NCBI GenBank assembly: GCA_016197225.1
Contig: JACPWC010000057.1
Coordinates: 44,675 to 108,674 of the forward strand
DNA length: 64,000 nucleotides
Origin: Chloroflexota bacterium
Lineage (GTDB): Bacteria > Chloroflexota > Anaerolineae > Anaerolineales > VGOW01
Direction: 5' to 3'
Position numbers and translations under genes: made by a program. Positions 2,215 through 62,450 of the stretch are shown piece after piece. The notes beneath the pieces were generated by a model. That model ran no database searches and was not told where the DNA came from. It saw nothing but the letters and a program-made list of their open reading frames with translations. Every line of letters starts with the position of its first letter. The stretch's first letter is position 1.

Positions 2215-2282
2215 CGTATTGCGTATTCCGTATTACGTAAGCAAAACGGCGGATACGGAATATGCAATACGCAATACGCGAA
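2215..2282. repeat. intergenic imperfect palindrome built from (G/C)CGTATT heptamers
   Basis: cgtattgcgtattccgtattacgtaagc-aaaacggc-ggatacggaatatgcaatacgcaatacg; arms are near reverse complements. Confidence 0.7.
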
Positions 2283-3266
2283 ATGCCGTCCGCGATTCGC
2301 CTTCTCACTCTCGGCCCGACGCACTGGCTCAAAACCCAGTCGGTCTATCACGCCCTGGCGGAGACAATGACGGCGGACTCGCCGGACACCCTCATCCTGG
2401 CCCAACCCTTACAACCGTATCTTTGCCTGGGCTATCACCAGGAATTGCATTCGGTGCTGGATCGCGCGGCGTGCGCCCGGATGCACTTGCCTATCGTCCG
2501 GCGGCGGGTGGGCGGGGGGGTGACGTATTTGGATGTCAACCAACTGTTTTATCAGTGTGTCTTTCACCACATGCGCGTCCCGGCCCTTATCACCGATGTC
2601 TATGCCCGATTGCTGGCCGCGCCGGTAGCGGCTCTGCAAAGACTGGGCTTGAAAGCAGAATTATGCGGCGAGAATGAGATCGAGGTGAACGGCAAACGCA
2701 TCGCCGGCATCGGCGGGGCGCGGATCGGCGAGGCGGCAGTGGTCGTCGGCAACCTGCTGTTCGATTTTGATTACGACAAGATGATACGGGCCTGGCGAGT
2801 TCCCTCCGAAGCTTTTCGCCAATTGGCCGCCGACGCTTTACGCGCACGGTTGACGACACTCTGGGCCGAGCTATCTTATCCCGTCGCGCCGTTTGAAGTT
2901 CAATATACCTTGATTGAAGAGTTTGCCCGCGCCCTTAATCGCTCTGTCGAAGAGGGCAAACTGACCGATGAAGAGATGCGAAAGATTGAAGCAGTCGAGA
3001 AACGGCTGGTCTCGTATCAATGGTTGAACCTCCATAACAATGGCGGCCAGCCTATGTCGGCGCTCAAAATCTCGCGCGGCGTCTTCATCCGCGCCGCTGA
3101 AGCGGATAGGGAAGGTAGCCGCATTCGAGCCGCGTTCCGCTTGCGTGACGACGTGATTGAGGAGGCCTGCCTGGAGTCCGATCCGGCGCAAGACTGGGAT
3201 CAGGTCGAGGCCGGCCTGCGCGGGGTACTGTTCAAGAAGTGGCAAACGCATCTGGCGGCTCGCTGA
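2262..3266 (+). CDS. lplA: lipoate--protein ligase family protein (BPL/LPL catalytic domain)
   Basis: LplA-like segments RRRVGGGVTYLDVNQLFY and NGKRIAGIGGARIGEAAVVVGNLLFD (lipoyl-AMP-binding Lys region). The true start is more likely ATG 2283 (MPSAIRLLTLGP) because 2262 lies inside an intergenic hairpin. Confidence 0.7.
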   Translation: MQYAIREMPSAIRLLTLGPTHWLKTQSVYHALAETMTADSPDTLILAQPLQPYLCLGYHQELHSVLDRAACARMHLPIVRRRVGGGVTYLDVNQLFYQCVFHHMRVPALITDVYARLLAAPVAALQRLGLKAELCGENEIEVNGKRIAGIGGARIGEAAVVVGNLLFDFDYDKMIRAWRVPSEAFRQLAADALRARLTTLWAELSYPVAPFEVQYTLIEEFARALNRSVEEGKLTDEEMRKIEAVEKRLVSYQWLNLHNNGGQPMSALKISRGVFIRAAEADREGSRIRAAFRLRDDVIEEACLESDPAQDWDQVEAGLRGVLFKKWQTHLAAR

Positions 3267-4027
3267 ACGGCAAAGTGGCTCTCGTCACCGGCTCGTCGCG
3301 CGGGATCGGGCGGGCGATTGCGCTGGAACTGGCCGGGGCGGGCGCTGATGTGGTGGTGCATTACGCGCGCAAACAACAAGCGGCGGAAGAAACGGTTGCC
3401 GCCATTGCAGCACTGGGCCGCCGGGCCGTTGCCCTCAAAGCCAATTTGGCCGAGGCCGACAAAATAGAGGCCTTGTACGACTCGTTGGAAGCCGCCTTTG
3501 GCCGCTGTGATATTTTCGTGGGCAATGCGGCCAGCGGGGTTCATGCGCCCATGCTGGAGATTGCCGACAAGCATTGGGACTGGACAATGGATGTGAATGC
3601 GCGCTCCGTCCTGCGGTGCGTCAAACGCGCTGTGCCACACATGGAAAGAGCGGGATGGGGGCGAATTGTGACGATCACCAGTTTGGGAAGCACGCGCGCT
3701 GTTCCCAACTACGGGGCTGTGGGCGTATCCAAAGCGGCTGTAGAGTCCTTGACTCGTTATCTGGCCGTGGAACTGGCCGGCAAGGGCATCATCGCCAACG
3801 CCGTTTCTCCCGGCCTCGTCAACACCGACGCTTTGGAGGCTCTACCAATAGATCAACAGGCCGCTTTGGCGCACGTAGCTCGCCGCAATCCGGTCGGCCG
3901 GCTGGTGACACCGGAAGACGTGGCGCGAGTGGTCGCTTTTCTTTGCTCCGAGGCCGCCGGCATGATCGTGGGGCAGACGATATTGGTTGACGGAGGCTAC
4001 GGGTTATTGACCGAGTATTTTGTATGA
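3239..4027 (+). CDS. SDR-family oxidoreductase (3-oxoacyl-ACP / enoyl-ACP reductase-like)
   Basis: GKVALVTGSSRGIGRAIA Rossmann motif, NAAS and the YxxxK catalytic region; 262 aa. Confidence 0.8.
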   Translation: MANASGGSLNGKVALVTGSSRGIGRAIALELAGAGADVVVHYARKQQAAEETVAAIAALGRRAVALKANLAEADKIEALYDSLEAAFGRCDIFVGNAASGVHAPMLEIADKHWDWTMDVNARSVLRCVKRAVPHMERAGWGRIVTITSLGSTRAVPNYGAVGVSKAAVESLTRYLAVELAGKGIIANAVSPGLVNTDALEALPIDQQAALAHVARRNPVGRLVTPEDVARVVAFLCSEAAGMIVGQTILVDGGYGLLTEYFV

Positions 4028-4039
4028 AATGGAGTATTC

Positions 4040-5587
4040 ATGAATTACGGCTTTGTCATTGACAACCGCAAATGCATCGGCTGTCACGCCTGCTCGACCG
4101 CATGTAAGAGCGAGAACGAAGTAGCGGTCGGCGTCAACCGCACATGGGTGAAGTACACCGAGAAGGGCGTCTTCCCGGACACGCGCCGCTACTTTCAAGT
4201 GACGCGCTGTAACCACTGCGCCAACCCGCCGTGCGTCTACATCTGCCCGGTCACGGCGATGTATCAGCGCAAAGACGGAATCGTCGAATTTGATCCGACG
4301 CGGTGTATCGGCTGCAAAGCCTGTATGCAGGCTTGCCCCTACGACGCCATTTACATTGATCCGAATACGAACACTGCCGCCAAATGCCACTACTGCGCTC
4401 ATCGCACGGACGTGGGCCTCGAACCGGCCTGTGTCGTCGTCTGCCCCGAACACGCCATCCTCGCCGGCGACCTCGACGACCCCAATTCCGAAATCGCGCG
4501 GGCGATTGCCACGCAACAGGTGCGCGCCCGCAAACCGGAGCAAGGCACGAAGCCCAAACTGTTTTACATTGACGCCGAAGAGTCCTCCATCGTCCCAACT
4601 CTCGCAACGCAAGACGGCGGCATGTTGTGGGCCGAGTGGCCCAATCACGGCCAGGGTGACTGGCGCGGCCCGATTCAAATTGGCGATGGAAACATGGCGA
4701 GCGCCCTGGTGCGTTCCGCCGCTGCACCGCGAGAAACGTACAACGCTCCCCACAAGATTCCCTGGCACTGGCAAGTCCCGTCGTACCTCGTCGCCAAATC
4801 AATCGGCGCCGGCGCGTTCATCGTCGCCGCCGTCGGCGTGGCCCTGGGCCTGCTCCCGGCCACGCCGCTCTTCACCACCGTCGCCGCTTTCGTCTCTCTG
4901 CTCTTCATCGGCCTCAACACCGGCCTCCTCGTCTGGGATTTGGATCGGCCTGATCGATTCTGGACGATTCTGATTCGACCACAATGGCGATCGTGGCTGG
5001 CCAGAGGCGCATTTATCCTCGTCGGCTTCACCGGGGTTGGCGGCCTCTATTTCCTCAGCTACCTCTTTAATCTCCAATTCTCTAATCTCCTTCTGTGGCC
5101 CGGCGTCATCCTGGCCGTCCTGTCAGCAATTTACACCGCCTTCCTTTTTGCCCAGGCTGAGGGCCGCGACTTGTGGCAGAGCACACTGCTCCCAGGGCAT
5201 TTCTTTGTGCAAGCCATCATGGCCGGGGCCGCCGCCTTGCTCGTGGTTGGCCCATTCTTCGGCATTGCGCCCGACTCAACTCGCGCCCTGGCCTGGACGT
5301 TCGGGTTGAGCCTGCTTGTCAATTTGCTGATCACCGTCGGCGGCGAGTTTGCTGTGCCGCACGCCAGCCAGGTAGCGGCAACTGCCGCCCACCTGATCAC
5401 CCACGGGCGCTACAAGACTCACTATTGGTTCAGCATCACCGGCGGCCTGCTCCTACCGCTGGCAACCGTTGTCTTCGTCGGCAACTCGCCTGTGGCATTG
5501 GCCGTAGCAAGCCTGCTTTCTCTCGTTGGCTTGTTTGCTTACGAATGGGCATTCGTCATGGCTCCGCAGGAAGTGCCGAATAATTGA
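4040..5587 (+). CDS. 4Fe-4S ferredoxin-type subunit fused to an NrfD/PsrC-like polytopic membrane anchor
   Basis: N-terminal half has four Cys clusters (CIGCHACSTAC; CNHCANPPCVYICP; CIGCKACMQACP; CHYCAHRTD...C) typical of DmsB/PsrB. The C-terminal ~290 aa is strongly hydrophobic with about 8 predicted TM helices. RBS GGAG sits upstream of ATG 4040. Confidence 0.75.
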   Translation: MNYGFVIDNRKCIGCHACSTACKSENEVAVGVNRTWVKYTEKGVFPDTRRYFQVTRCNHCANPPCVYICPVTAMYQRKDGIVEFDPTRCIGCKACMQACPYDAIYIDPNTNTAAKCHYCAHRTDVGLEPACVVVCPEHAILAGDLDDPNSEIARAIATQQVRARKPEQGTKPKLFYIDAEESSIVPTLATQDGGMLWAEWPNHGQGDWRGPIQIGDGNMASALVRSAAAPRETYNAPHKIPWHWQVPSYLVAKSIGAGAFIVAAVGVALGLLPATPLFTTVAAFVSLLFIGLNTGLLVWDLDRPDRFWTILIRPQWRSWLARGAFILVGFTGVGGLYFLSYLFNLQFSNLLLWPGVILAVLSAIYTAFLFAQAEGRDLWQSTLLPGHFFVQAIMAGAAALLVVGPFFGIAPDSTRALAWTFGLSLLVNLLITVGGEFAVPHASQVAATAAHLITHGRYKTHYWFSITGGLLLPLATVVFVGNSPVALAVASLLSLVGLFAYEWAFVMAPQEVPNN

Positions 5588-5630
5588 GAATTAGAGGATT
5601 GGAGAATTCTCTAATTCTCCAATCCTCTCC
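5586..5630. repeat. AT-rich palindrome (GGATTGGAGAATT-ctct-AATTCTCCAATCC) at the FeS-anchor / Mo-subunit gene junction
   Basis: 13-bp perfect arms read directly from the sequence. Confidence 0.75.
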
Positions 5631-5640
5631 ACATGAAACG

Positions 5641-8553
5641 ATGCCTATGACTGACACCATCACCCCTACCCGCCTCACCACCCAACACAACGACGCAGGT
5701 GAACGCCTGCAACAATACCCGCCGCCCGAAAAATGGGACGACTGGGTTGAGTGGGATCACAAACAGTGGCCGAAGAAAGTGCCCAAGCACTACATGCTCG
5801 TGCCGACCGTGTGTTTCAATTGCGAGTCGGCTTGCGGCTTGCTGGGCTGGGTGGATAAAGAGACGATGCAGGTGCGGAAGTTCGAGGGCAACCCGGTCCA
5901 CCCCGGAAGCCGGGGCCGCAACTGCGCCAAAGGCCCGGCCACCATCAATCAAGTCAACGACCCCGACCGCATTCTCTATCCGCTCAAGCGCGCAGGAAAG
6001 CGCGGCGAAGGCAAGTGGGTGCGGGTGACGTGGGAAGAAGTGCTAAAGGACATCGGCGGTCGTATTCGCAAAGCGTTTTTAGAAGAGCGGCACAACGAGA
6101 TCATGTATCACGTTGGCCGCCCCGGCCACGATGGCGTCATGGAATGGATTCTTCCAGCCTGGGGCGTGGACGGCCACAACTCGCACACTAACATTTGCTC
6201 GTCGGGCGCGCGGGCGGGCTACGCTTTTTGGATGGGCTTCGACCGCCCCAGCCCCGACCACGCCAACGCCAACGTCATCCTGCTCATCAGCAGTCATCTC
6301 GAAACCGGCCACTACTTCAACCCGCACGCCCAGCGCATCATCGAGGGCAAGATGAACGGGGCAAAATTGATCGTGTGGGACACCCGGCTGTCGAACACGG
6401 CCTCGATGGCCGACACCTGGATTGCGCCGTGGCCCGGCTCGGAAGCCGCCATCCTGCTCGCCATCGCCAACTACCTCATCACTACTGGCAAATACAACCG
6501 GGAGTTTGTGAAGAAGTGGGTGAATTGGGAAGAGTATCTAAAGGCGACGGCAGACGATGGACGGCAGACGACAGACGACTCGTCGTCCATCGTCCATCGT
6601 CCGTCGTCATTCGATGATTTCGAGGCCGCGCTGAAAGAGCAATACGCAAAATATACGTTTGAGTATGCGGCAAAAGAGTCGGGCGTAGAGGCGGCTGTGT
6701 TGCGGAGGATTGCTGAGGATGTTGCAAACTGCGGCGGCAAACTGGCGACGCACAACTGGCGTAGTGCGGGCGCGGGCAACCTCGGCGGCTGGCAGGTGGC
6801 GCGTTGCCTGTTCTTCCTCAACGTCCTCACCGGCAGCATCGGCGTGGAGGGCGGCACCTCGGCCAATGCGTGGGACAAGTGGGTGCCGCGCCCGCATAAG
6901 TTCCCGCCGCACGGCAAACGCTGGAACGAACTCACCTGGCCGCGCGAGTATCCGCTCTCCTACTTCGAGATGAGCATCCTCCTCCCGCACTTCCTCAAAG
7001 AAGGGCGCGGCAAACTCGACACCTACTTCACCCGCGTCTACAACCCGATGTGGACGAACCCCGATGGCTTCACCTGGCTCGAAGCTCTGCGCGATGAGTC
7101 GAAGATTGGTTGTCACGTCGCCCTCACGCCCACGTGGAGCGAGTCGGCGTGGTGGGCCGATTACGTTCTGCCGATGGGCCACGCCTCCGAGCGCCACGAC
7201 CTGATGAGTCAGGAGACGCATGCCGGGCAGTGGATTGCTTTCCGCCAGCCGGTCAATCGCGTGGCGATGGAACGAATGGGAAAGAAAGTCAACCGCACCT
7301 ACGAAGCCAACCCCGGCCAGGTTTGGGAAGAGACTGAGTTCTGGATTGACCTGAGTTGGGAGATTGACCCCGACGGGGCACTCGGCATCCGTCAGTATTT
7401 CGAGTCGCCCTATCGCCCCGGCGAGCGCATTACGATGGACGAGTTCTACGGCTGGATGTTTGAGAACACCGTGCCCGGCCTGCCGGAGGCCGCCGCAAGG
7501 GAAGACTTGAAGCCGCTGGCGTACATGCGGAAATATGGCGCGTTCGAGATTCGCAAAGGCGCGTTGACTGAATACGACCGGACGCTTGCGCCTGAAGAAA
7601 TGACTGACGCGCAAGTGGATGAGGCGACGGGCATCATCTACATCAAGACTCCGATGACGCCGCCGAAAAACATCGTGCCGACTCCTGCCCCCGTCACCAC
7701 CGACTTAGGGCGACCCGTCGGCGTGATGGCCGGCGGCCAACCAAAGTTCGGCTTCCGCACCCCGTCGCGCAAACTCGAATTCTTTTCGACCACCCTCCGC
7801 GATTTCGGCTGGCCCGAAGTTGCCACGCCCGAATACATCGAGAGCCACGTCCACCCCAGCCGGGTCAACCGTGAGGCCAATGAGTTCGTTTTGCTTTCTA
7901 CCTATCGCCTCCCGACTCTGATCCACACCCGAAGCGCCAACGCCAAATGGCTGGTTGAAATTTCGCACTCCAACCCGACGTGGATTCACACCAGTGATGC
8001 CAACCGGCTTGGAGTTAAGACGGGCGAGTTGGTGCGCGTCGAAACCGAGATCGGTTATTTTGTGGATAAAGTCTGGGTCACCGAAGGCATCCGCCCCGGC
8101 GTGATCGCCTGCTCGCATCACCTCGGCCGCTGGCGGCTGACCGAAGGTGACGGCACAAACCGGATCGCCTCGGCGCTGGTTGAACTAAAAGAGGCGGGCG
8201 GCCAGTGGCAATTGACTCAACTCCACGGCGTCCAGCCGTACAAATCCTCCGACCCGGACACCGAGCGCATCTGGTGGAGTGATGCCGGCGTCCACCAGAA
8301 TCTCACCTTCCCCGTCCAGCCCGACCCGATCAGCGGCATGCACTGCTGGCATCAGAAAGTGAAAGTGACAAGAGCGCAACCCGGCGACCGTTACGGTGAT
8401 GTTCACGTAGACACGAACAAAGCCCACGAAGTGTACAAGCGCTGGCTGGCGATGGCCCGCCCGCCGACCGGCGAGTGGCGGCGGCCCAATTGGATGCTGA
8501 GACCGTTCCGGCCCGACGTGAGCGCGTACCGAATTAAGAAGGATGAAGGATGA
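5641..8553 (+). CDS. molybdopterin (bis-MGD) oxidoreductase catalytic subunit, PsrA/PhsA/TtrA-like (CISM family)
   Basis: N-terminal MopB FeS motif CFNCESACGLL...NCAKG; ~970 aa. No twin-arginine signal is visible. The ORF track starts at TTG 5584, which lies inside a hairpin; ATG 5641 (MPMTDT) is preferred. Carries an in-frame palindromic insert (DDGRQTTDDSSSIVHRPSS). Confidence 0.75.
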   Translation: MPMTDTITPTRLTTQHNDAGERLQQYPPPEKWDDWVEWDHKQWPKKVPKHYMLVPTVCFNCESACGLLGWVDKETMQVRKFEGNPVHPGSRGRNCAKGPATINQVNDPDRILYPLKRAGKRGEGKWVRVTWEEVLKDIGGRIRKAFLEERHNEIMYHVGRPGHDGVMEWILPAWGVDGHNSHTNICSSGARAGYAFWMGFDRPSPDHANANVILLISSHLETGHYFNPHAQRIIEGKMNGAKLIVWDTRLSNTASMADTWIAPWPGSEAAILLAIANYLITTGKYNREFVKKWVNWEEYLKATADDGRQTTDDSSSIVHRPSSFDDFEAALKEQYAKYTFEYAAKESGVEAAVLRRIAEDVANCGGKLATHNWRSAGAGNLGGWQVARCLFFLNVLTGSIGVEGGTSANAWDKWVPRPHKFPPHGKRWNELTWPREYPLSYFEMSILLPHFLKEGRGKLDTYFTRVYNPMWTNPDGFTWLEALRDESKIGCHVALTPTWSESAWWADYVLPMGHASERHDLMSQETHAGQWIAFRQPVNRVAMERMGKKVNRTYEANPGQVWEETEFWIDLSWEIDPDGALGIRQYFESPYRPGERITMDEFYGWMFENTVPGLPEAAAREDLKPLAYMRKYGAFEIRKGALTEYDRTLAPEEMTDAQVDEATGIIYIKTPMTPPKNIVPTPAPVTTDLGRPVGVMAGGQPKFGFRTPSRKLEFFSTTLRDFGWPEVATPEYIESHVHPSRVNREANEFVLLSTYRLPTLIHTRSANAKWLVEISHSNPTWIHTSDANRLGVKTGELVRVETEIGYFVDKVWVTEGIRPGVIACSHHLGRWRLTEGDGTNRIASALVELKEAGGQWQLTQLHGVQPYKSSDPDTERIWWSDAGVHQNLTFPVQPDPISGMHCWHQKVKVTRAQPGDRYGDVHVDTNKAHEVYKRWLAMARPPTGEWRRPNWMLRPFRPDVSAYRIKKDEG
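6545..6612. repeat. GACGA-family palindromic mini-element inserted in frame in the Mo-enzyme catalytic gene
   Basis: gacgatggacggcagacgacagacgac / tcgtcgtccatcgtccatcgtccgtcgtc; encodes DDGRQTTDDSSSIVHRPSS. Confidence 0.7.
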
Positions 8554-8585
8554 ATTACGAAATGAAGCTTCATCCTTCATCCTTC
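8538..8585. repeat. palindrome (GAAGGATGAAGGATGAA ... TTCATCCTTCATCCTTC) spanning the stop/start junction of the Mo-subunit and TorD-like genes
   Basis: Inverted arms flank the ATGA overlap. Confidence 0.65.
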
Positions 8586-9455
8586 ACGCGAAGCGTTCAT
8601 CCTTTGCTTTCCCATCTCTGGCTTCACGAACCGGATGCAGAGGCAGTGGCCCGCGCGGCGGCTGAGTTGGATTTGCCCTTCGCCGATCCAACCGAACTTG
8701 CTTCCGCTTACACCGATGTCTTTCTACTCAACGTTTACCCTTACGGCACGGCCTTCACTGATCCGTCTGGCGAATTGAACGGCCCGGCGGCGCAGGAAAT
8801 GGCGGCGTTGTACGAGGCGCATGGCTACCAGCCGCCCGAACTGAATGTGGTCGGCGCACCGGATCATGTAGGACTATGTTTGGGGTTTCTAGGAAAATTA
8901 GGAGAATTAGACGCGAAGCGTAGAGAATTATCTCTTGACTGGATTGCTGTATGTTGCCTTGCCGTCGAGCGGGAATCGGCCGCGCCGCCTTTTTATCGCG
9001 CCCTCGCCAACATCACCCGCGAAGCGCTGTTTGCGCACCACGCGCCCCCTTCCGCACCCATCGCCAATTCTCCAATTCTCCAATTCTTGAATCCGCAGGA
9101 AGAACTTTCCCTTCGCGACCTCGTCCGCTTCTTCCTCGCCCCGGCGCAGTGCGGCGTGTTTCTCTCACGCTCACAGCTGGGGCAGATGGCAAAGGCATTG
9201 GGGTTGAGGCTCCCGTTTGGATCGCGGTTTGAAGTGGCGGAGATGTTGTTCGCCAGCGCGGGCGAGGCGGAACAGATTGAACAGTTAATTGGCACATTGG
9301 AGGCCGAAGTTCAGGTATGGGCGACGGAATATCGGGCTTGGGCAGAGAAGTATCCAGAATGGCGGCCCCTTGCCGACGCCTGGCTCGCACGGACGGCGGA
9401 GGCTGACCACCTGTTGGCCGGGATGCGGCAGATGGCGACGACGGCGATCACATGA
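8550..9455 (+). CDS. TorD/DmsD-family redox enzyme maturation chaperone-like protein
   Basis: ATGA overlap with the upstream stop. Region FTDPSGELNGPAAQEMAALYEAHGY...PDHVGLCLGFLGKL matches the TorD-like pattern (PDH..ELEF). At 301 aa it is longer than typical. Confidence 0.5.
   Translation: MNYEMKLHPSSFTRSVHPLLSHLWLHEPDAEAVARAAAELDLPFADPTELASAYTDVFLLNVYPYGTAFTDPSGELNGPAAQEMAALYEAHGYQPPELNVVGAPDHVGLCLGFLGKLGELDAKRRELSLDWIAVCCLAVERESAAPPFYRALANITREALFAHHAPPSAPIANSPILQFLNPQEELSLRDLVRFFLAPAQCGVFLSRSQLGQMAKALGLRLPFGSRFEVAEMLFASAGEAEQIEQLIGTLEAEVQVWATEYRAWAEKYPEWRPLADAWLARTAEADHLLAGMRQMATTAIT
9064..9090. repeat. CCAATTCT tandem triplet inside the TorD-like CDS (encodes NSPILQF)
   Basis: ccaattctccaattctccaattct, a low-GC island in a high-GC gene. 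Confidence 0.55.
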
Positions 9456-13809: not shown

Positions 13810-16178
13810 TATGGCGCAAACCGGAGCACAAGCGACTGCTCCGGGCCGGGGCCGCTGTCTTTCTGCAAATCAACTCTGAGCGGGTCAGTCCAGGCGGCTG
13901 GCAGAGTCAGAGTGCCCTGCCACGACTCGGAGTCGTTCAGGATAATGGGCGTTGTGACCCGGTGGACGCGGTAGGTCGTCGTCTGCCCTTCGTGATTGAT
14001 CAGGCGCAGGCCGATGCAGATATTCGAGTCACAGGAGGCGACGCTTTCCACGTAGAACTCTGTATAAGGTTCAGCCGCCGCCTGCCTGGATAGCCGATCG
14101 GCCAACGGCCCATAACCCAACATCAACACACTCGTCAGCAGGATGATCAACATGATCTTGTTGCTCGCCGACTGCCGCCAAAGACGCCACAGGCTCAACC
14201 CGGCCAGTCCGGCTAGCGTCAGCGGTGCCAGCCACCCGGGCGAAGGCGCGCCCAGCAGATTGGCCAGCAGGTATTCCACAAAGACAAGCAGAAGCGCTAA
14301 CGCGACACCCAGGCCAAGCCCGGCTTCAACGTCGGCTCGCGCCAAAACCGTCAGCCCGGCCCCGCACAGAATCAAAAGAACGATCTGGCCGGTTGCCAAC
14401 AGCCAGGGCAACACTTGATCGCCGGCGTTGAAAACGGGCAGCGAATCAGAAGCAGAAAGCAGATCGCGCATTTGAAATCCGCGCGACACACTTAACGGCG
14501 GGGCGTAAACTTCGGCCCAGCCCGCATCGTAAATGCGGCCTAGCTTGCCAGCCGTGAACGACTCCAGAGAAATGTTGGAAGCGAACTGATACTGATCGCG
14601 CTCGCCGACTATCAGGGAGGCCGAGGGCGACGGTATCGCCGGCTCCAGATCGCAGTGCGCGCATCCCGGGTTGTTGCCGGTGAGCGGGCGGATCAGGCGG
14701 TAGAGGCCGAGTCCGGCGAAGATGTCGGCCTCGGGGCGGAGTTGCAGAATCAGATCGTATTCCTGCCGCAACAGCAGAGAGCGCGTCTCGCCCTGCGCGA
14801 GGTCGGGTTGGCGTTGCGAGTAGAGGTGGGCAGGCACGCGATACAGACTGTTTAGCCCATAGACGACGAACACCAGCCCCAGCGGCCACGACAGCCACCG
14901 CCGTCCTTGAAATGAAATCAGCACCGTATAAGCGGCGGCGGGCAACAAAAAGGCATAGCTCAAAATCTCAAAGCGGCTGGGGAGCGAACTGGTTCCCTGA
15001 ACTCTGCCGAGTGTAACCAGCACACTCCCCAGACCCATCATCCCGCCCCACAACACAAAGATTGTGTGCCAGACTCGCCGGCTTTTGCCGGAAGTGAACG
15101 ATCCGGCCAGAGCCAGCAGGCCGAACAGGGCAGTGGTCAGCATTTGCAGGTACAACAAAATTGTGTAGCGCGCCGTCTGCGGCAGTTTTAGCGCCGCCAC
15201 TTCCGGCCCGGCGGTGGCGTCCTGAAACAGCGACTCGGCCAGCCTCAGTGGCGTGTATCGCAGATAAAGCCAGTACATGGAGAGAGCCACAAAAATGAAG
15301 AGCCACAGGGTGAAATTGATCTGGCCCACGCTGGAGAAATGGAGTCGATCTTTCAACCAGGAGAGGCGCGCCCCGTAATGCGCCACCAGCGCCAACAGCA
15401 CAAACATCAACAGCGCCAACGCCATGAGGTGGTGCGCAAAAATAACGCCAACGCTGAGGGCCATTGCCGCCAGCCGGTAAAAACGCCCCGCCGTCTCCTG
15501 CGACTTCACAATCGAATAGATGGCCGCCAGAAATAGAGCGAAGGCCAGCGTCTCGCGCACGTAGAGCGAGTGAAACATGAGGTACATGTACGTCAGGCCA
15601 AAGCCCAGCGCGCCCAACAGCGCAACCCGTTTCGACTGATAGACTTCCAGGCTGATCGCATAAACCAACTGCAGAGAGATTAGACTGAGGAAGGGCATTG
15701 ACCAGCGCGCCCAGGTCATCAGCGATAGCTGGACGGGGCCGGTGAGTGACAGGCTGATGGCGGAGAGAAAAGGGTAACTGGTTTGATGCGGCCACAACGA
15801 CAGCCCTTCATTCCACGGGGAAAGCGCCAACCAGCCCGAGCGCCCGATCTCGGACGTGGCGGCGTAATCGTGGTAGGCATCCGAACCGAAAAAGGGGACG
15901 GTTGCCGGGGCAAAGATGGTTTTGAACAGCCAGACCAGAGTCATAATTGCCCACAAGGCCCAGATGAGCGATGGCGCTTCATCGTGGCTAATCAAAATCC
16001 ACACGACCAGCGCCGTGATCGCCAGCGCACTGCCGCCCCAAAACAGGCTCACGGGCAAATACAGTCCGGCCCGAACGGCGATCAGATAAGCCAGCAAAAC
16101 GATCAAACTGATCCCAAACAAACTCTGGCAGACCCGTATCGGCAAGCGTGGCGCAATCCCGGTTGAGTTTACGTTCAT
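13809..16178 (-). CDS. large polytopic membrane protein, putative GT-C-type glycosyltransferase/polymerase (PMT/ArnT-like)
   Basis: 789 aa with more than 15 hydrophobic helices and a large C-terminal soluble region; embedded in a glycosyltransferase operon next to a polyprenol-P-sugar synthase-like GT2. Function is inferred from context only. Confidence 0.4.
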   Translation of the reverse strand: MNVNSTGIAPRLPIRVCQSLFGISLIVLLAYLIAVRAGLYLPVSLFWGGSALAITALVVWILISHDEAPSLIWALWAIMTLVWLFKTIFAPATVPFFGSDAYHDYAATSEIGRSGWLALSPWNEGLSLWPHQTSYPFLSAISLSLTGPVQLSLMTWARWSMPFLSLISLQLVYAISLEVYQSKRVALLGALGFGLTYMYLMFHSLYVRETLAFALFLAAIYSIVKSQETAGRFYRLAAMALSVGVIFAHHLMALALLMFVLLALVAHYGARLSWLKDRLHFSSVGQINFTLWLFIFVALSMYWLYLRYTPLRLAESLFQDATAGPEVAALKLPQTARYTILLYLQMLTTALFGLLALAGSFTSGKSRRVWHTIFVLWGGMMGLGSVLVTLGRVQGTSSLPSRFEILSYAFLLPAAAYTVLISFQGRRWLSWPLGLVFVVYGLNSLYRVPAHLYSQRQPDLAQGETRSLLLRQEYDLILQLRPEADIFAGLGLYRLIRPLTGNNPGCAHCDLEPAIPSPSASLIVGERDQYQFASNISLESFTAGKLGRIYDAGWAEVYAPPLSVSRGFQMRDLLSASDSLPVFNAGDQVLPWLLATGQIVLLILCGAGLTVLARADVEAGLGLGVALALLLVFVEYLLANLLGAPSPGWLAPLTLAGLAGLSLWRLWRQSASNKIMLIILLTSVLMLGYGPLADRLSRQAAAEPYTEFYVESVASCDSNICIGLRLINHEGQTTTYRVHRVTTPIILNDSESWQGTLTLPAAWTDPLRVDLQKDSGPGPEQSLVLRFAP

Positions 16179-17362
16179 CTTAGAACCGCATCCGGGCGCG
16201 CTTGTGGTTGGCGGCGGGCCAGCGCCTCTTCGCAGATTTGAATCAACTGCGCTCCTGTCGCTTCAACGCTGTAGGCCTGCATGGCCTGACTACGCCGTTC
16301 ACGCGCCATCTCAGAGTCCGATTCACGGGTGATGAAGTCAATGAGAGCTTCAGCCAGCGCTTCTTCGGCGGCAGGCACGATGCGCCCCATCTCCGGCGAA
16401 GCGGAGAGCACCTGCCGCGCATCGCCGATGTCGGTGCTCACGACCGGCGTGCCGCAAGCCAACGCCTCTTTGATCACCGTCGGGCTTCCCTCTTCGAGCG
16501 AACACAGGGCCAGCACGTCCGCCGCCGCGTAATAGTGGGCAACTTGATCCGGCAGAACTTCGCCGACGAACGTGATCCGGTCGCTGCATTGGGCCGCCAG
16601 CGATTTTAGCATCGCCCCGCTTTCTCCGTGGCCGGCAAGCCAGAGCCGGGCCTCAGGCACTTTTTGGGCTACGAGGGCGAAGGCGCGCAAGAGAAGAGGA
16701 ATGTTTTTGACGGGGGCCAACCGGCCCATGAATAAAACAAGGCGAGCTTCGGGAGGCAGGTTGAGGGCCGCCCGCGCTTCGCTCTGGCGCAAGCGATGCA
16801 TGTGGCTAAGATCAACCGCCGATGGCACGCAGGCGGTGAGGCGCGCCTGAGGATAGCGCCGGGTGTAGTACAGGCGCGTCGCCGGGTCCACCGGCACAAT
16901 CGCGTCACAGCCGTTGACGCAAATGCGTTCGGCCAGCCGGTATAGCCAGCCAAACAACGCAAACAAGTTCGGAAAACTCAAACGCAAAAAGTGGGCGGGA
17001 GTCGCGCTGATCATGACTTTGGGCTGGCCGGGCTTAAACAGCACAAAGGCCAACATGCAATCCATGCGGTGGGTGACGACAACGGCGTCCGCCGGAATTT
17101 GTAGGAAGGGTAAGCGCAAATAGAGGTTTAGCAAATAGCCCGCCCATCCTGTCCAGTGGGCGGCCTCGTGGCTGATGGCAATGTGAGTCCACGAAGCGGC
17201 GGGGTTGGGCGCTCCGGCTTGCGCTCCGATCGCGGTGACACCCCAGCCATGATCGAGCAGGACCCGCAACAAATTCATCAGGTAGCGAATGCCACCGCCG
17301 CTGGCCGGGTGAAACGAGTCCATCGGATGGGCGATCACCGCCTGCTTGAGAGTTTGGGTCAT
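16175..17362 (-). CDS. glycosyltransferase family 4 (GT-B)
   Basis: EGSPTVIKEALACGTPVVSTDIGD, the E-x7-E GT4 motif. Confidence 0.8.
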   Translation of the reverse strand: MTQTLKQAVIAHPMDSFHPASGGGIRYLMNLLRVLLDHGWGVTAIGAQAGAPNPAASWTHIAISHEAAHWTGWAGYLLNLYLRLPFLQIPADAVVVTHRMDCMLAFVLFKPGQPKVMISATPAHFLRLSFPNLFALFGWLYRLAERICVNGCDAIVPVDPATRLYYTRRYPQARLTACVPSAVDLSHMHRLRQSEARAALNLPPEARLVLFMGRLAPVKNIPLLLRAFALVAQKVPEARLWLAGHGESGAMLKSLAAQCSDRITFVGEVLPDQVAHYYAAADVLALCSLEEGSPTVIKEALACGTPVVSTDIGDARQVLSASPEMGRIVPAAEEALAEALIDFITRESDSEMARERRSQAMQAYSVEATGAQLIQICEEALARRQPQARPDAVLR

Positions 17363-21115: not shown

Positions 21116-21116
21116 C

Positions 21117-44712: not shown

Positions 44713-44777
44713 CGAGAGTCGCCGGGCGGGGTATCATCTCGCCGCTTTGAAGTTCACGGCGAAGGAGGTGATTATTG

Positions 44778-44978: not shown

Positions 44979-44982
44979 AAAC

Positions 44983-45013
44983 ATGGCCCCTCGTTTGAGG
45001 GGCCATGTTTTTT
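44983..45013 (+). terminator. Rho-independent terminator after rpsU (possibly bidirectional)
   Basis: atggcccctc-gttt-gaggggccat followed by gtttttt. Confidence 0.8.
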
Positions 45014-47130: not shown

Positions 47131-47192
47131 AAGAGAACGAAGGACGATAGACGAAAGACGACGGATGGTCGTCATTTGTCATTCGTCATTTG
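47131..47192. repeat. GACGA-family element, intergenic copy
   Basis: gaacgaaggacgatagacgaaagacgacggatggtcgtcatttgtcattcgtcatttgtcat. Confidence 0.6.
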
Positions 47193-48518
47193 TCATTTCT
47201 TCTCCCCAAACTTCGCCGTCAACAACTCCGTCAGCGTCGGCTGGCCGATCTCTTGCAGTTCGTAACGCACGCGCTGAGCCGGCTTGTCGAACTTGATCAG
47301 GCGGCTGAGGTCAATTGGGGTGGCGACAACGACCACGTCTGCCGGAGTGTTGTTGATCGTCTGCCGCAGTTCTTCGGTCTGCTTCGCGCCGTAGCCCATC
47401 GCCGGCAGCACCGCGCCGGTCGTTGGATACTTTTTGTAAGTGGCGATGATACTGCCGACGGCATACGGTTTCGGATCAATAATCTCCGCCGCCCCGAAAC
47501 GTTTGGCCGCCACCACGCCGGCCCCGTAAGCCATCTCGCCGTGAGTGAGGGTGGGGCCGTCTTCGACCACCAGCACCCGCTTGCCGCGAATGGCCTCCGG
47601 GTCGTCCACAAAGATCGGGGAAGCCGCCTCGACGATAGCGGCTTTGGGATTCAGGCCGCGCAGACTCTCGCGCACACTCATCACCGCGCTGGAGTCCGCC
47701 GTGTCCACTTTGTTGATCACCAGCGCATCGGCCAGCCGCACGTTGGCCTCGCCTGGGTGATAGCTGGACTCGTGGCCGGGGCGGTGCGGGTCGGCCACCA
47801 CAATGTGATAATCGCTGACGTAAAACGGCAGGTCGTTGTTGCCGCCGTCCCACAACACAATGTCCACTTCCTTCTCGGCCTCGCGCACAATCTTCTCGTA
47901 GTCCACCCCGGCGAACACCACCACGCCCCGATCAATGTGCGGCTCGTACTCTTCGCGCTCTTCGATGGTGCAGTTGTATTCTTCGAGATCGTCGTATTCG
48001 GCAAAACGTTGGACGTTCTGGGCGATGAGGTTGCCGTAAGGCATAGGGTGGCGAATGGCGGCCACGTTGTAGCCCAGCCCGCGCAAAATGCTGGCCACGT
48101 GGCGCGAGGTCTGGCTCTTGCCCGCGCCGGTTCGCACCGCGCCGATGGAAACGACGGGCTTGGTGGATTTGACCTGCGTGTGCCGCAGGCCGAGCAGGCT
48201 GAAATCGGCGCCGGCGGCCAACACCTGAGAAGCCTTGTGCATCACATAGTTGTGCGAAATGTCGCTGTAGCTGAACACAACTTCGTCTACTTTCAGATCG
48301 GCGATCAGTTTGAGCAGTTCTTCTTCGCCATAAATGGGAATGCCTTTGGGATAGTTCGGCCCGGCCAGTTCAGGCGGGTAAGCCCGCCCGGCGATGTCGG
48401 GAATCTGGGTGGCAGTGAAGGCTACCACTTCCACTTGATCGTTCTGGCGATAATACGTGTTGAAATTGTGGAAGTCGCGCCCGGCGGCTCCCATGATCAA
48501 AATGCGTTTTTTGGACAT
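47193..48518 (-). CDS. cyclic 2,3-diphosphoglycerate synthetase-like P-loop protein
   Basis: 441 aa; P-loop VSIGAVRTGAGKSQT about 130 aa in; WDGGNNDLPFY..YHIVVADP block. The layout resembles archaeal cDPG synthetase as I remember it; the family assignment is from memory, not from an alignment. Confidence 0.45.
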   Translation of the reverse strand: MSKKRILIMGAAGRDFHNFNTYYRQNDQVEVVAFTATQIPDIAGRAYPPELAGPNYPKGIPIYGEEELLKLIADLKVDEVVFSYSDISHNYVMHKASQVLAAGADFSLLGLRHTQVKSTKPVVSIGAVRTGAGKSQTSRHVASILRGLGYNVAAIRHPMPYGNLIAQNVQRFAEYDDLEEYNCTIEEREEYEPHIDRGVVVFAGVDYEKIVREAEKEVDIVLWDGGNNDLPFYVSDYHIVVADPHRPGHESSYHPGEANVRLADALVINKVDTADSSAVMSVRESLRGLNPKAAIVEAASPIFVDDPEAIRGKRVLVVEDGPTLTHGEMAYGAGVVAAKRFGAAEIIDPKPYAVGSIIATYKKYPTTGAVLPAMGYGAKQTEELRQTINNTPADVVVVATPIDLSRLIKFDKPAQRVRYELQEIGQPTLTELLTAKFGEKK

Positions 48519-55265: not shown

Positions 55266-55295
55266 GAGAGTTCTCCTTTCGTCTAAACATTTCGC

Positions 55296-55333
55296 AGACC
55301 TCACAGGTCTGCTTCGCAAGACCTGTGAGGTCT
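55296..55333. repeat. perfect 15-bp inverted repeat AGACCTCACAGGTCT-gcttcgca-AGACCTGTGAGGTCT between two minus-strand genes
   Basis: Read directly. Confidence 0.75.
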
Positions 55334-55339
55334 ACGCCG

Positions 55340-59733: not shown

Positions 59734-61653
59734 TCAACTGTTTGGTTGAGGAGCCGACCCGCCGCTGGCCCCGTTGCCATTCATTTGGCTTCGCAAGATC
59801 ATCCCCAGCAAGGCATCGGTCATGCTCGCCCCGCTGGCGCCCGCGCCGTTAACGATCAGGTCAGGGATGATACGCACCCTCTGATCGCCGATGATCTGCA
59901 TGAGTTGGATGGCGGTGTAGCCTTGCGGGCCGAGGGCCTGCATACCGGCGCGATACGCTTCGGCCTTGGCCATACCAATAGCGCGGATGCCTTCGGCCTC
60001 GCCCAGGCCGCGTAGTTTGATAGCCTCGGCTTCGCCCGCGCCGCGCAGGCGGATGACTTCGGCCTCACCGTTAGCACGCTTGATCACTGCCTTCGACTCA
60101 ATGTCGGCGATGTTCACGCCCTGCTCGGCCTTGACCATGTTCTGCTGGATGTCGGCCAGCGACGTTTCGCGCACAAGTTGCTGGCGCTGGGTTTGGGCCG
60201 CCTGTTGTACTTCGTAAGTCTTCCTCTGCTCCTCGGCGATCTTCCGGTCAGTCTGCGTCTGCATCAATTCAGCCGGCGGGGTGATGTCGCCAATGAGGGT
60301 GTCTATGGCCTGCACATCGTAGGTTTGCAAAGCCTTGTAGATGTGCGAGGCGGCCTCGTGCTGACGCTCACTGCGGTTGCTCAAAAAGTCCAACACTGTG
60401 TACGCTTGCGCGGAGTTGCGGAAGTAGTTGCCGACGATCGGTTGTAAAACGTGATCCACCAGATTTTGCATCGAGCCGACGCGCGAGATCACCTTGGGAG
60501 CGTCGGGCGCGCCGACGTGGATGATTTGAGCCACGTCGAGGTTGAACGAGAAGCCGTCTTTGGAGCGCACGGTGATGGATGAGAGTCGAGCGTCGTAGCT
60601 GTGCGCTTCAGTGCGGGCCGCCCAGTTGAGGACGATATTGGTAGTGGGCACCAGTTCAGTCTTCATTACCCGGGTGTTGATGGGGTGTTTGCCGGGGTAG
60701 AGCGGCGTTACCCACACGCCCTTGTGGCCGGTGTTTACCAGGTCGCCATGTTTGAATTCGGCGCCGCTCACGTCTTCGTGAGCTTTGCCGACGTAGGAGA
60801 TGACGACGCCCACATAACCGATCGGGATTTCGGTCATCGGCGACTGTTCCACCACCACAAACCAGGGGTTGAGGTTCCACGAGCCGGACAGTAGAACCTG
60901 TTCCTGCAAACCACGGCGGCCACCCCGTTCAATAAAGTGCTGGGCGCTCTGGAAGTTGTCGTGGCCGGGCACGATCACGCCGGCGATCTCGCCTTCGTCA
61001 ATGGGCTTGCCGTCGAGCGTGGTTACAATGCCCACCTTGTCGGGCTGAACCGAGTAGACGAGCAGTTGCCTCGGCGTCATGCCGTGCTTCTCGGCGTTGG
61101 CGGCTGTGATGACCGTGAAGAGGGCGGTGTTGATGCGATAGGTGCCAGTGGTGAGGAGGCCAAGTTGACGACCTTTCTCGCCGCCATTCAACAGAAACTT
61201 GCGCGCGTTCTGGAAGTTGTCACACTCCACCAGCTTGCCCAGGATGTGTTCGGGCGGGATGGGTGAGCCGTCGTTGGCGACGAGAAGCGCGATCTCGCCC
61301 TGAGGGATGGTGATGACTTGAGCTTTGGTGATAGTGTATTGCCAGAACCAATAGCCGAAGTGCCAACCAGGAGCCAGCGTGTCGGCCTGGTAGCCGGCCT
61401 CGCCATTGAGGGCCACGAGTCGGCCAGCAGATAACGACTTGGTGCTGAACTTCTTAATGACGATGCCTACCTGTCGCTCGCCAATAATTACCAGCCCAAC
61501 TGTGGCCGCCACCAACAGAAGACCCAGAGCGGCTACCCCCAATGCTGACAGCCAACTTAAGGCCGTTCCCAGCCCCAAAGCCGGGCCGAGCCAGGGCATA
61601 ACGATGCCAATGAACAGCAAAAATATACCAAGCAACAAAAAGAAACTTTCCAT
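59734..61653 (-). CDS. SPFH/band-7 family protein, flotillin-like
   Basis: N-terminal TM helices, SPFH domain, then a Glu/Ala coiled-coil (AEVIRLRGAGEAEAIKLRGLGEAEGIRAIG) typical of flotillins; RBS AGGAGG. Confidence 0.75.
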   Translation of the reverse strand: MESFFLLLGIFLLFIGIVMPWLGPALGLGTALSWLSALGVAALGLLLVAATVGLVIIGERQVGIVIKKFSTKSLSAGRLVALNGEAGYQADTLAPGWHFGYWFWQYTITKAQVITIPQGEIALLVANDGSPIPPEHILGKLVECDNFQNARKFLLNGGEKGRQLGLLTTGTYRINTALFTVITAANAEKHGMTPRQLLVYSVQPDKVGIVTTLDGKPIDEGEIAGVIVPGHDNFQSAQHFIERGGRRGLQEQVLLSGSWNLNPWFVVVEQSPMTEIPIGYVGVVISYVGKAHEDVSGAEFKHGDLVNTGHKGVWVTPLYPGKHPINTRVMKTELVPTTNIVLNWAARTEAHSYDARLSSITVRSKDGFSFNLDVAQIIHVGAPDAPKVISRVGSMQNLVDHVLQPIVGNYFRNSAQAYTVLDFLSNRSERQHEAASHIYKALQTYDVQAIDTLIGDITPPAELMQTQTDRKIAEEQRKTYEVQQAAQTQRQQLVRETSLADIQQNMVKAEQGVNIADIESKAVIKRANGEAEVIRLRGAGEAEAIKLRGLGEAEGIRAIGMAKAEAYRAGMQALGPQGYTAIQLMQIIGDQRVRIIPDLIVNGAGASGASMTDALLGMILRSQMNGNGASGGSAPQPNS

Positions 61654-62104: not shown

Positions 62105-62133
62105 TTGACAAGCCTTTTTGGGCGTGATAACAT
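62105..62133 (+). promoter_or_regulatory. sigma70-like promoter for the metK leader (TTGACA-17-TAACAT)
   Basis: TTGACA 62105-62110, 17-nt spacer, TAACAT 62128-62133, just upstream of the riboswitch. Confidence 0.5.
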
Positions 62134-62159
62134 GCCGCCGAAAGTTCAATAGCCTACAC

Positions 62160-62380
62160 GGCAACTCTTATCCAGAGAGGCGGAGGGACCAGCCCGATGA
62201 AGCCTCGGCAACCGTCTGGATGTTAGAGGTTAGAGGTTAGAAATTGGAGAACTTCCAAAATCTAACATCCAACTTCCAACCTCCAAAATTGGTGCCAATT
62301 CCGGCAGGTATCTGGAAGATGAGAGGGAGCCACGAGTTAAATCGCCATGCCCCTTCTCCGCCAGAAGGGGCTTTTATTTA
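62160..62380 (+). promoter_or_regulatory. SAM-I (S-box) riboswitch with an expanded P3 stem, plus terminator-type expression platform
   Basis: CUCUUAUCCAGAGAGGCGGAGGGACCAGCCCGAUGAAGCCUCGGCAACC ...GGUGCCAAUUCCGGCAG...GAAGAUGAGAGG matches the SAM-I consensus blocks. A ~75-nt imperfect palindrome (62222-62290) is inserted where P3 normally closes. Terminator ccccttct-ccgcc-agaagggg + cttttattt at 62349-62380. Confidence 0.8.
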
Positions 62381-62450
62381 CACGACGACTGACCGACGAC
62401 GAAAGACGAGCGACAAGCCTTCGTCTTTCGCCTATCGTCCTCCGTCATTC
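62381..62450. repeat. GACGA-family element between the riboswitch terminator and the metK RBS
   Basis: cgacgacgaaagacgagcgacaagcc-ttcgtctttcg-cctatcgtcctccgtcat. Confidence 0.6.

Follow-up and report, generated by a model that had tools for sequence, protein, structure and literature searches.

Heptanucleotide tandem repeats are known from several groups of bacteria, and the class comprises the short tandemly repeated repetitive (STRR) sequences of heterocystous cyanobacteria, the long simple sequence repeats of 5-11 nt (LSSR), the GGGNATC repeats of Xanthomonas and Nostoc, the TAACTGA repeats of Beggiatoaceae, and the (GATAGRA)n repeats of Chloroflexus aurantiacus (PMC6749651). According to the part of PMC4679880 that summarises Mrazek 2007, among repeats with units of 5-11 nt, the heptanucleotides are the most frequent in many bacteria, and slippage of the polymerase has been put forward as their cause. 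The passages on repeat location in PMC4679880 and PMC4692102 state that units with a length that is a multiple of three are favoured in coding regions, and they stress an intergenic location. In Nostoc, paired TTTTGAA and TTCAAAA arrays lie near start codons (bioRxiv 10.1101/2022.06.06.494920), and in Geobacter metallireducens heptanucleotide repeats have already been reported inside genes (PMC2700814). Regulatory roles have been proposed for such arrays in Geobacter, Beggiatoaceae, and Nostoc (PMC2700814, PMC4679880, bioRxiv 10.1101/2022.06.06.494920). A literature search found no paper on heptamer repeats in Anaerolineae. Here we describe arrays of this kind in a 64-kb stretch (hereafter the window; GC content about 0.60) of contig JACPWC010000057.1, which is 108,674 bp long and belongs to a metagenome-assembled genome (MAG) of an uncultured Chloroflexota bacterium. 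About 20 elements of 26-73 nt were counted in intergenic DNA, inside conserved enzyme genes and in a riboswitch helix. Their closest known class is the bacterial heptanucleotide tandem repeat of the STRR/LSSR type, and not the Rickettsia palindromic element (RPE), to which an earlier note on this sequence had likened them.

Results

Short-Unit Arrays in the Window

The proteins of the window match MBI3242588, MBI3242602, MBI3242603, and MBI3242611 (locus tags HYZ49_), and its nearest relatives among the GTDB representative genomes are MAGs of the Anaerolineae/Anaerolineales, in which the beta subunit of methylcrotonyl-CoA carboxylase (MCCase-beta) is 72-79% identical. By Pfam, the host genes code for an NrfD-ferredoxin fusion, a molybdopterin oxidoreductase (mopB), a TorD/NarJ-like chaperone, homocitrate-synthase-like, LeuC/LeuD-like and isopropylmalate-dehydrogenase-like proteins, a ferredoxin-type glutamate synthase (gltB), the beta and alpha subunits of MCCase, and MetK. 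For comparison, about 20 loci of close and graded relatives, all metagenomic, were fetched (labels beginning with L), and loops and linkers were placed by inference from alignment regions of variable length and from alignments with PDB sequences.

The repeats are real, lie far beyond chance expectation and are not artefacts. A strict scan of the window detected eight arrays of period 7, one of period 8, and none of periods 6, 9, or 12, whereas 20 third-order Markov simulations gave no array at the scanned periods against the nine observed. Tandem Repeats Finder returned 17 rows of period 7 and five of period 8. When single families were searched as patterns, GACGAnn x3 gave 24 matches (2.4 expected from shuffles), AGACTTCSGAAGTCT gave seven (one expected), and CCAATTA x3 gave four (none expected); the family patterns exceeded all shuffles. 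At least 10 different unit families coexist in the 64 kb, and several occupy more than one locus: GACGAnn is present at four, and CCAATTA, GACTTCC, and CGTATTn at two each. In eleven elements an array is followed by its inverse, and the strand can fold into an interrupted hairpin (-21 to -42 kcal/mol, z from -3.2 to -8.1). Direct arrays only were found at two sites of gltB (34423 and 36487), in the TorD-like gene (9064), at two places in the LeuC-like gene (31093 and 31135), at two in the biotin carboxylase gene (43366 and 44323), and at 39439, 40271, and 41225.

The earlier note had described several recurring families of short-unit, often palindromic repeats, and this description was borne out. 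Its model of a 6-8-nt unit repeated in tandem and then inverted fits the eleven palindromic elements but not the ten direct arrays, and the periods are 7 and 8, with no array of period 6 in the strict scan. Hairpins, which it ascribed to the intergenic copies, can form at most of them but not at 39439 and 41225. A GC content lower than that of the window was found for most elements (0.25-0.52 against 0.60), although the GACGA family and gltB site 3 reach 0.57-0.62. The coordinates that it listed do hold short-unit repeats with the exception of 41468-41498, which is ordinary coding sequence for the motif DPxSPFLE(L/F)SPLAA, conserved in orthologs from Chloroflexota to Proteobacteria and Actinomycetota. 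Nine further elements were added to those of the note (8538-8586, 31135-31162, 39439-39474, 40271-40303, 41225-41270, 43366-43397, 44323-44355, 55293-55336, and 62218-62290).

Fixed Sites With Changing Content

The density of strict period-7 arrays per 100 kb is 12.5 for the window, 13.4 for close relatives, and 9.8 for other Anaerolineae-like loci, against 1.2 for other phyla. For periods 7 and 8 together, the clade loci L090-L097 have 12.4 arrays per 100 kb and L098-L100 plus L103 have none. Overall, the clade stands at 12-13 arrays per 100 kb, the nearest outgroup loci at 0, and loci elsewhere at 1-3. L098-L100, the nearest outgroup, are free of arrays at all three comparable sites, and the claim of the earlier note that the insertions are lineage-specific was thus upheld, outgroup orthologs being without elements. 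The arrays arose at the base of one Anaerolineae-like clade. Within the clade, they fill essentially every unconstrained spacer: intergenic gaps, gene ends, a 5' untranslated region (UTR), a riboswitch loop, and variable surface loops or linkers of conserved enzymes.

Comparison of orthologous positions indicates that the sites are fixed and that their content turns over, an element being inherited, changed in unit number, enlarged by nested palindromes, or replaced by another family. Inherited elements are shared by the window with L084 (gltB sites 1 and 2), L086 (gltB site 2), L090, L091, and L093 (the mopB/TorD junction), L095 (the NrfD-mopB spacer), L096 (mopB), and L172 (metK 5' UTR). Unit number, the variation of which between strains is used in STRR fingerprinting, differs here between orthologous elements of related species. 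Family swaps were observed in mopB, in the TorD-like and LeuC-like genes, at gltB sites 1 and 3, in the NrfD-mopB spacer, at the mopB/TorD junction, and in helix P3 of the riboswitch.

The same array architecture is present in the unrelated lineages of Roseilinea, a Thermoanaerobaculia MAG, and a gammaproteobacterial MAG. Heptamer arrays of the latter two MAGs lie in L013 (2915-2983; array plus inverted array) and L029 (4613-4724). A long (GATAGCY)n array in L111 (4537-4727) resembles the GATAGRA satellite of Chloroflexus.

Elements Inside Protein Genes

The reading frames of all host genes are intact. As the earlier note had stated, the intragenic copies keep the frame of conserved housekeeping genes and encode low-complexity peptides, among them NQLPITNYQ and DDGRQTTDDSSSIVHR. 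Its statement that they add 9-23 residues applies to some sites only. Alignment to orthologs, which it had proposed for gltB, the carboxyltransferase and mopB, revealed net insertions in mopB (+13 aa), MCCase-beta (+10), and gltB site 3 (+12), and otherwise only in the LeuC-like gene (+18); at gltB sites 1 and 2 and in the biotin carboxylase at 43366 the loop is as long as in distant orthologs (for example in Chloroflexus and Oscillochloris). Stop codons are absent from both strands of the intragenic palindromic families and from the coding strand of the one-way arrays. All elements contained within a single reading frame lie on the plus strand; palindromes at gene junctions and elements between genes are given without strand unless stated.

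The element of mopB (6545-6612) is a GACGAnn palindrome with a hairpin of -42 kcal/mol (z = -5.4), which encodes ATADDGRQTTDDSSSIVHRPSSF in frame. It replaces an ancestral 10-aa loop, RAEHPDLPVT, which corresponds to a conserved 30-nt segment in more than 30 outgroup or related loci (60-83% identity). In the window clade this loop is occupied by arrays of 33-111 nt, always a multiple of three. L096 contains a homologous GACGA element (16/17 match over CGACGGCNGACGACAGA), and L081, L082, and L090-L095 contain CAAATCC and CCAATxx arrays instead. In L081 the loop reads SQISKSQNPNNAPITNNQLPIT, from AAATCCC and CCAATTA arrays, and the MopB proteins of L081 and L082 are about 93% identical to that of the window. 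Two observations were made in other mopB genes: L118, a relative only 63% identical, has a CCAATTA array at another position of the gene (3497-3519), and the mopB loop of L113 has an AAATCCC/CCCAAT array of independent origin.

The next element, a GAAGGAT/CTTCATC palindrome (8538-8586; -27.2 kcal/mol, z = -6.9), extends from the mopB C-terminus and stop codon to the N-terminus of the TorD-like gene. The GAAGGAT family is present at this junction with other unit numbers in L090, L091, and L093 (about 2.5 units per arm in the window versus about four in L091 and L093), other families are present in L081, L082, L092, L094, and L095, and the outgroups L098-L100 are array-free. Inside the TorD-like gene, a direct array (CCAATTCT)x3 (9064-9090) encodes ANSPILQFLN in frame. 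At this site L081 and L082 have CCAATTA/CCCAATA arrays and L090-L097 yet other arrays. In some relatives, the heptamer arrays contain or adjoin larger palindromes of another type, as at the mopB/TorD junction of L092 (around 4380-4480) and L094 and at the TorD-like internal site of L091 and L095; GTCATTGCGAGGCGCG...CGCAATGAC and AGCGAAGCGAAGCC...GGCTCTTCGCTTCGCT are examples. Possibly these palindromes represent a separate repeat family, of more classical type, with the same target sites.

Two adjoining arrays lie in one loop of the LeuC-like protein, the large subunit of an aconitase-family enzyme, where the repeat region is 18 aa longer than in PDB 4nqy. The first (31093-31119) is an in-frame half-element of the CGTATTn family, in place of which L081, L087, and L089 have CAAACTn/CAAATCn arrays. 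The second (31135-31162) is made up of ATCAnnn heptamers (ATCAACG ATCAGAA ATCAACT ATCAAAG) and is partly common to the same three relatives, as GAAATCA units.

Three sites were found in gltB. Site 1 is a (CCAATTA)x4 array (34423-34450; NQLPITNYQ) that overwrites a variable linker without a change in net length; it is kept in L084, and its place is taken by (GCAATCA)x5 in L086 and by a GACGA-like sequence in L085. Site 2 is a (CCAATTA)x3.3 array (36487-36512; TNYQLPIT), again with net length unchanged; arrays of this family also occupy the site in L084 and L086 (69% aa identity). Site 3 is a GACTTCC/GGAAGTC palindrome (37917-37976; -34.5 kcal/mol, z = -4.3) that accounts for the approximately 12 additional residues in a loop of the C-terminal domain; the length of this loop varies widely among relatives, and L084 and L086 have other families there.

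In MCCase-beta, a GACGAnn palindrome (42070-42138; -38.2 kcal/mol, z = -5.5) is inserted in frame in a length-variable inter-domain linker, the gain of 10 aa being relative to most orthologs and to PDB 4q0g. Other palindromic short-unit repeats occupy this loop in L004 and L005, the Roseilinea one being GACTCCC/GGGAGTC. The biotin carboxylase carries an ATGAACA-type array (43366-43397; MNNEIMNNEQ) with no change in net length, which dodges its own in-frame TGA by means of one 8-nt unit; the corresponding loop of Roseilinea L005 holds a TCAATTT array. A CAGAAGT-type array (44323-44355) lies in the linker between the biotin carboxylase and biotin carboxyl carrier protein domains, the length of which is variable among orthologs.

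The metK Riboswitch and 5' UTR

Upstream of metK there is an S-adenosylmethionine (SAM)-I riboswitch (62165-62325, plus strand; Rfam RF00162, 77 bits), followed by a terminator hairpin at about 62340-62376. A palindromic GGTTAGA/TCCAACn array (62218-62290, plus strand; -25.9 kcal/mol, z = -4.3) is inserted in the apical loop of its helix P3. In the Rfam alignment it appears as a 67-nt insertion at a point where the model has 6 nt. All four related riboswitches that were compared have self-complementary arrays of 75-91 nt at the same point, built of other unit families (-27 to -52 kcal/mol), so that with the window the P3 inserts are self-complementary in five out of five. The riboswitch helix thus tolerates elements as stem extensions, in the same way as protein loops tolerate low-complexity peptides. 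The riboswitch of L174 has an additional 24-nt insertion in the P4 loop.

A second element, a GACGAnn palindrome (62381-62450; -25.1 kcal/mol, z = -4.3), lies in the metK 5' UTR, past the riboswitch terminator and ahead of the ribosome-binding site. L172 has a homologous element at this site, L174 a similar one and L170 a different palindrome, and in L173 the site is empty, which represents a presence/absence polymorphism. The copy of the window is flanked by imperfect short direct repeats (ATTTACAC ... ATTCACAC), the only flanking direct repeat that was found.

Elements Between Genes and at Gene Ends

A palindrome of CGTATTn heptamers (2214-2282; -32.2 kcal/mol, z = -6.4) separates the radical-SAM gene from the LplA/B-like gene. 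It has a 16-nt exact string, TTGCGTATTCCGTATT, in common with the copy at 31093 in the LeuC-like gene, with the variant units in the same order, which argues for copying between the two sites. The region from the NrfD-ferredoxin stop to the mopB start contains a GAGAATT/AATTCTC palindrome of 7-8-nt units (5586-5630; -23.9 kcal/mol, z = -4.6), and the NrfD-ferredoxin stop codon lies within it. L095 has a homologous element in this spacer and L082, L091, L092, L094, and L097 have five other families, which amounts to six different palindromic families in seven relatives; L098-L100 are array-free. Three elements overlap gene ends and supply stop codons, namely those at 5586, 8538, and 47131. The last is a GACGAnn/GTCATTn palindrome between two minus-strand genes (47131-47198; -20.8 kcal/mol, z = -3.2) and provides the TGA of the upstream gene.

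The divergent intergenic region that precedes the isocitrate/isopropylmalate dehydrogenase-family gene contains a double AGACTTCSGAAGTCT palindrome (32777-32815; -30.2 kcal/mol, z = -7.2). Between this gene and the LeuD-like gene there is a 161-aa open reading frame (ORF) without Pfam match (32255-32737, minus strand); in L081, the two flanking genes overlap directly. The double palindrome is placed just upstream of a TATAAT box, in the promoter region created by the 161-aa ORF.

Three direct arrays are intergenic. (GACTACTC)x4.5 (39439-39474) lies between the arginase-family and DUF6585 genes and forms no hairpin (z = -1.3); in L173, the P3 extension of the riboswitch is made up of the related GACTAC family. 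A weak array of AATCnnn heptamers, recognised by direct reading of the sequence, is found between the DUF6585 and asparaginase genes (40271-40303). A CAAATCC-type array (41225-41270, plus strand), also without hairpin, immediately precedes the MCCase-beta start codon and belongs to the family that occupies the mopB loop in L081, L082, and L090-L095. Between two minus-strand genes, a double palindrome of AGACCTGTGAGGTCT (55293-55336; -36.5 kcal/mol, z = -8.1) is related in form to the other elements without being a clear heptamer array.

Anatomy of the GACGA Unit

The four GACGA palindromes of the window are alike in size (62-70 nt) and have only the unit in common, with different flanks, unit order and unit number. 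Within the unit, each of the five core positions carries 1.3-2.0 bits of information and the last two are nearly random (0.1-0.2 bits); when the hairpin folds, core pairs with core, and the variable dinucleotides are left as small internal loops. No conserved ends or shared termini were detected across copies, the flanks of the four GACGA elements sharing nothing. No transposase, RAYT (REP-associated tyrosine transposase), or integrase domain was found in any ORF of the window, which was the extent of that scan of the genome.

Other Features of the Window

Repeats of longer period are present near the end of the window (63820-63980; 24 nt x3.8 and 18 nt x2.3) and inside an SPFH/Band-7 gene (59983-60066; 33 nt x2.5). 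Since their periods are multiples of three, these are probably ordinary coding repeats. A small unlisted ORF at 44777-44974 on the plus strand (MTVVNLRPNESQDQLLKRFKKKVMKSG...) resembles ribosomal protein S21 and is followed by a perfect terminator hairpin (44979-45010). Adjacent DUF5615 and DUF433 genes (45873-46666, minus strand) form a pair that resembles a toxin-antitoxin module; the same pair is found beside metK in L173 and near the LeuD-like gene in L087. A c-di-GMP-I-GGC riboswitch (RF03167, 73 bits; 25259-25348, minus strand) lies in a 358-nt gap upstream of a minus-strand glycosyltransferase gene cluster (about 16178-25113), which suggests that a cyclic dinucleotide controls an exopolysaccharide locus. 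Around the homocitrate-synthase/LeuCD cluster, carbamoyl-phosphate synthase and gltB, the order of the genes is rearranged between the window and L081, L082, and L084, whose proteins are 87-95% identical, and this points to frequent local rearrangement in the group.

Discussion

Relation to Known Repeat Classes

The elements share with the heptanucleotide class the 7-nt unit, the combination of core and variable positions, and the small number of units per array (PMC4679880, PMC4692102, PMC6749651). They are also alike in their many dispersed copies, mostly at gene borders, in a patchy, lineage-specific distribution, and, with respect to Nostoc, in inverse pairing. Head-to-tail 7-nt units beyond chance, many dispersed copies of one unit family and lineage-restricted abundance were all found here. 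The locus differs from the class in the coexistence of many families, in the array-plus-inverted-array hairpins formed by most intergenic copies, in the large share of copies in frame in conserved enzymes and in a riboswitch helix, and in the documented swapping of families. The published case of Geobacter metallireducens includes intragenic copies, its multicopy heptanucleotide and octanucleotide elements being GGACCGG x4, MTYCTGA x5, and GTTGCTYN x4, some paired on opposite strands; it concerns another phylum and other units, interpreted as regulator sites or RNA elements, and the account includes no orthologous-site comparison, in-frame peptide analysis or turnover (PMC2700814). What appears to be new is thus not the kind of element but the coexistence of many families in an Anaerolineae lineage, the systematic in-frame occupation of enzyme loops together with a riboswitch helix, and the documented turnover at fixed sites, where the availability of array-free outgroups makes the ancestral state datable. 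In Nostoc, Elhai et al. in 2008 reportedly described mobile elements of 21-27 nt (small dispersed repeats, SDR) embedded in tandem heptameric repeats; the study is cited in PMC5861425 and PMC3116915. The SDRs, too, are very small and associated with heptamers, and they reportedly show nested insertions, with recent mobility seen at orthologous sites. They are, however, defined sequences inserted into arrays, whereas here the arrays themselves vary, and nested palindromes were found only in relatives (L091-L095).

An RPE is a discrete element, about 100-150 bp long, that has defined ends and follows the consensus of its family. The likeness proposed by the earlier note is genuine in one respect: the elements of mopB, MCCase-beta, and gltB site 3 are palindromic and in frame in conserved genes, and in what PMC3733652 says of RPEs, these are palindromic repeats lying in frame in conserved genes and giving an extra peptide to apparently functional proteins. 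The elements of the window, unlike RPEs, measure 26-73 nt, have a variable number of 7-8-nt units and no conserved ends, and often replace a loop. Copies share only the unit core, with no consensus over their whole length, and the host belongs to Chloroflexota and not to Rickettsiales. Since the discrete consensus element that defines an RPE is absent, the label is not justified and membership was rejected, although the in-frame behaviour is still analogous. Rfam gave no match at the element sites, which has little weight given that it is a library of RNA families, and no search against the RPE-1 to RPE-8 consensus was made.

Repetitive extragenic palindromes (REPs) and the hairpin-forming REPINs are likewise short dispersed hairpins of several families at gene ends, which sometimes provide stops (PMC3733652, PMC3116915), and REPs, like RPEs, occur inside ORFs (PMC3733652). 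REPs are single imperfect palindromes of 20-40 bp with a conserved GTAG/CGTC tetranucleotide head and a cognate RAYT gene, whereas the present elements have tandem sub-units and lack a conserved head, and the window contains no RAYT. CGTC is part of the GACGA/TCGTC core, where it is the internal repeated core of one family and not an end tag; membership was rejected on this ground and because the ends of copies are not conserved. Miniature inverted-repeat transposable elements (MITEs) were rejected as well, there being no shared termini and no consistent target duplication (the repeat flanking 62381-62450 is imperfect).

Origin of the Arrays

We favour, at somewhat better than even confidence, the view that the elements are a lineage-specific, selectively filtered population of heptanucleotide, and in some cases octanucleotide, arrays of the STRR/LSSR class. 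As general knowledge of repeat instability suggests, they would be generated by a replication or repair process in which unit slippage changes the array, intra-strand template switching builds and maintains the inverted arm, and ectopic copying between arrays spreads the families; a dedicated transposase acting on fixed ends would not be required. Purifying selection would then act as a filter, letting only frame-preserving, stop-free versions of tolerable length survive in genes and only self-complementary ones in the riboswitch loop. For the protein, the outcome would be a neutral or nearly neutral low-complexity loop peptide, and intergenic hairpins may incidentally act as RNA stabilisers or terminators. 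Several observations weigh against this view. Units of one arm differ from each other nearly as much as units taken from different loci do (Hamming distance 2.12 versus 2.27, p = 0.07), so that recent local expansion from a single unit is weakly supported, and local homogenisation was rejected as a proof of slippage. A 5-nt core with two near-random positions is not predicted by plain duplication, and it hints at a constraint on the core, whether from pairing, from recognition or from the synthesis mechanism itself. The alleles at the mopB site are incongruent with the mopB tree, in which the window groups with L081 and L082 although its element matches that of the basal L096; such a pattern calls for recombination or repeated replacement. 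One and the same family can turn up at unrelated sites and in several genomes, GACGAnn at its four window sites and in L085, L096, L172, and L174, and CCAATTA in gltB here and also in L086 and L118; simple in-situ slippage leaves such recurrence unexplained, and some copy-and-paste step must exist. Finally, freedom from stop codons points in the expected direction but was rejected as a proof of selection, since 50-69% of all heptamers pass the test.

This recurrence, together with the clean empty site of L173, keeps alive a model in which the elements are non-autonomous mobile mini-elements comparable to REPINs, RPEs, MITEs, or SDRs, moved as hairpins by an enzyme encoded elsewhere; we consider it possible but rather doubtful. 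At the same doubtful level, the mover could be a structure-specific Y1 transposase (RAYT or IS200 type) or an RNA-mediated route, with new copies landing preferentially in existing arrays or hairpins. The empty ancestral sites of the outgroups, the extra palindromes nested inside arrays of L091, L092, L093, L094, and L095, the similar size of the four GACGA palindromes, the short direct repeats flanking the metK 5'-UTR copy and the mobile elements reported from Nostoc heptameric repeats agree with it. It fits poorly with the lack of conserved ends and, at other sites, of a consistent target duplication, with the variation of unit number between copies, and with direct, non-hairpin arrays that behave like palindromic ones; no transposase-like gene was detected in the window, although one could lie elsewhere in the genome, and the number of unit families would call for many sequence-specific enzymes or for one that reads structure only. 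The core of five conserved and two free positions and the strict 7-nt spacing would also be expected if the arrays were functional, either as periodic sites for a protein binding single strands or duplexes or as selected terminator or stabiliser hairpins, with intragenic copies as tolerated by-products. Many arrays do lie at gene starts or ends, some overlapping stop or start codons, hairpin potential is kept although sequence is replaced, and regulatory roles were proposed in the three groups cited above. We nevertheless regard both forms of this explanation as improbable, since the family at a given site is not conserved between close relatives, the outgroups do without arrays at the same sites, as L173 does in the metK 5' UTR, the unrelated cores are too many for a single binding protein, and the copies in enzyme loops have no obvious regulatory logic. 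Chance low-complexity sequence or faulty assembly might be suspected in a MAG contig, the more so as 41468-41498 proved to be merely repetitive-looking conserved coding sequence. Such an origin is so improbable that we reject it: the simulations, shuffles and hairpin z-scores rule out chance, all host frames are intact, and homologous elements occupy the same sites in independent JGI, ENA, and NCBI assemblies (L084, L090, L091, L093, L095, L096, and L172; L081 versus L087 and L089).

Significance

The locus provides an unusually clean natural experiment, with empty sites in the outgroups, one clade in which every permissive site is filled, and family swaps at fixed sites between species with about 93% identical MopB. 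It allows one process to be read in three kinds of tolerant sequence, namely intergenic DNA, protein loops and a riboswitch helix. It shows how a mutational or selfish process combined with purifying selection can remodel surface loops of glutamate synthase, MCCase, a molybdoenzyme and a LeuC-like subunit, and the elements mark dispensable residues of these enzymes. The phyletic contrast between L090-L097 and L098-L100 indicates where to look for a responsible gene. A more speculative idea, to which we assign a low probability, is that the clade acquired at its base a sequence-independent activity by which DNA is written or moved in a 7-nucleotide register, and that this activity is shared with cyanobacteria, Geobacter, and others; equally tentative candidates would be a repair polymerase prone to slippage, an adder that copies a template much as telomerase does, or a mobilisation system that recognises structure. 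If this were true, such an activity would continuously overwrite unconstrained DNA with core-plus-variable heptamer hairpins and would steadily supply new loop peptides and extensions of RNA helices. The main value of these arrays is that they offer a tractable system in which to study how the heptamer repeats of bacteria arise.

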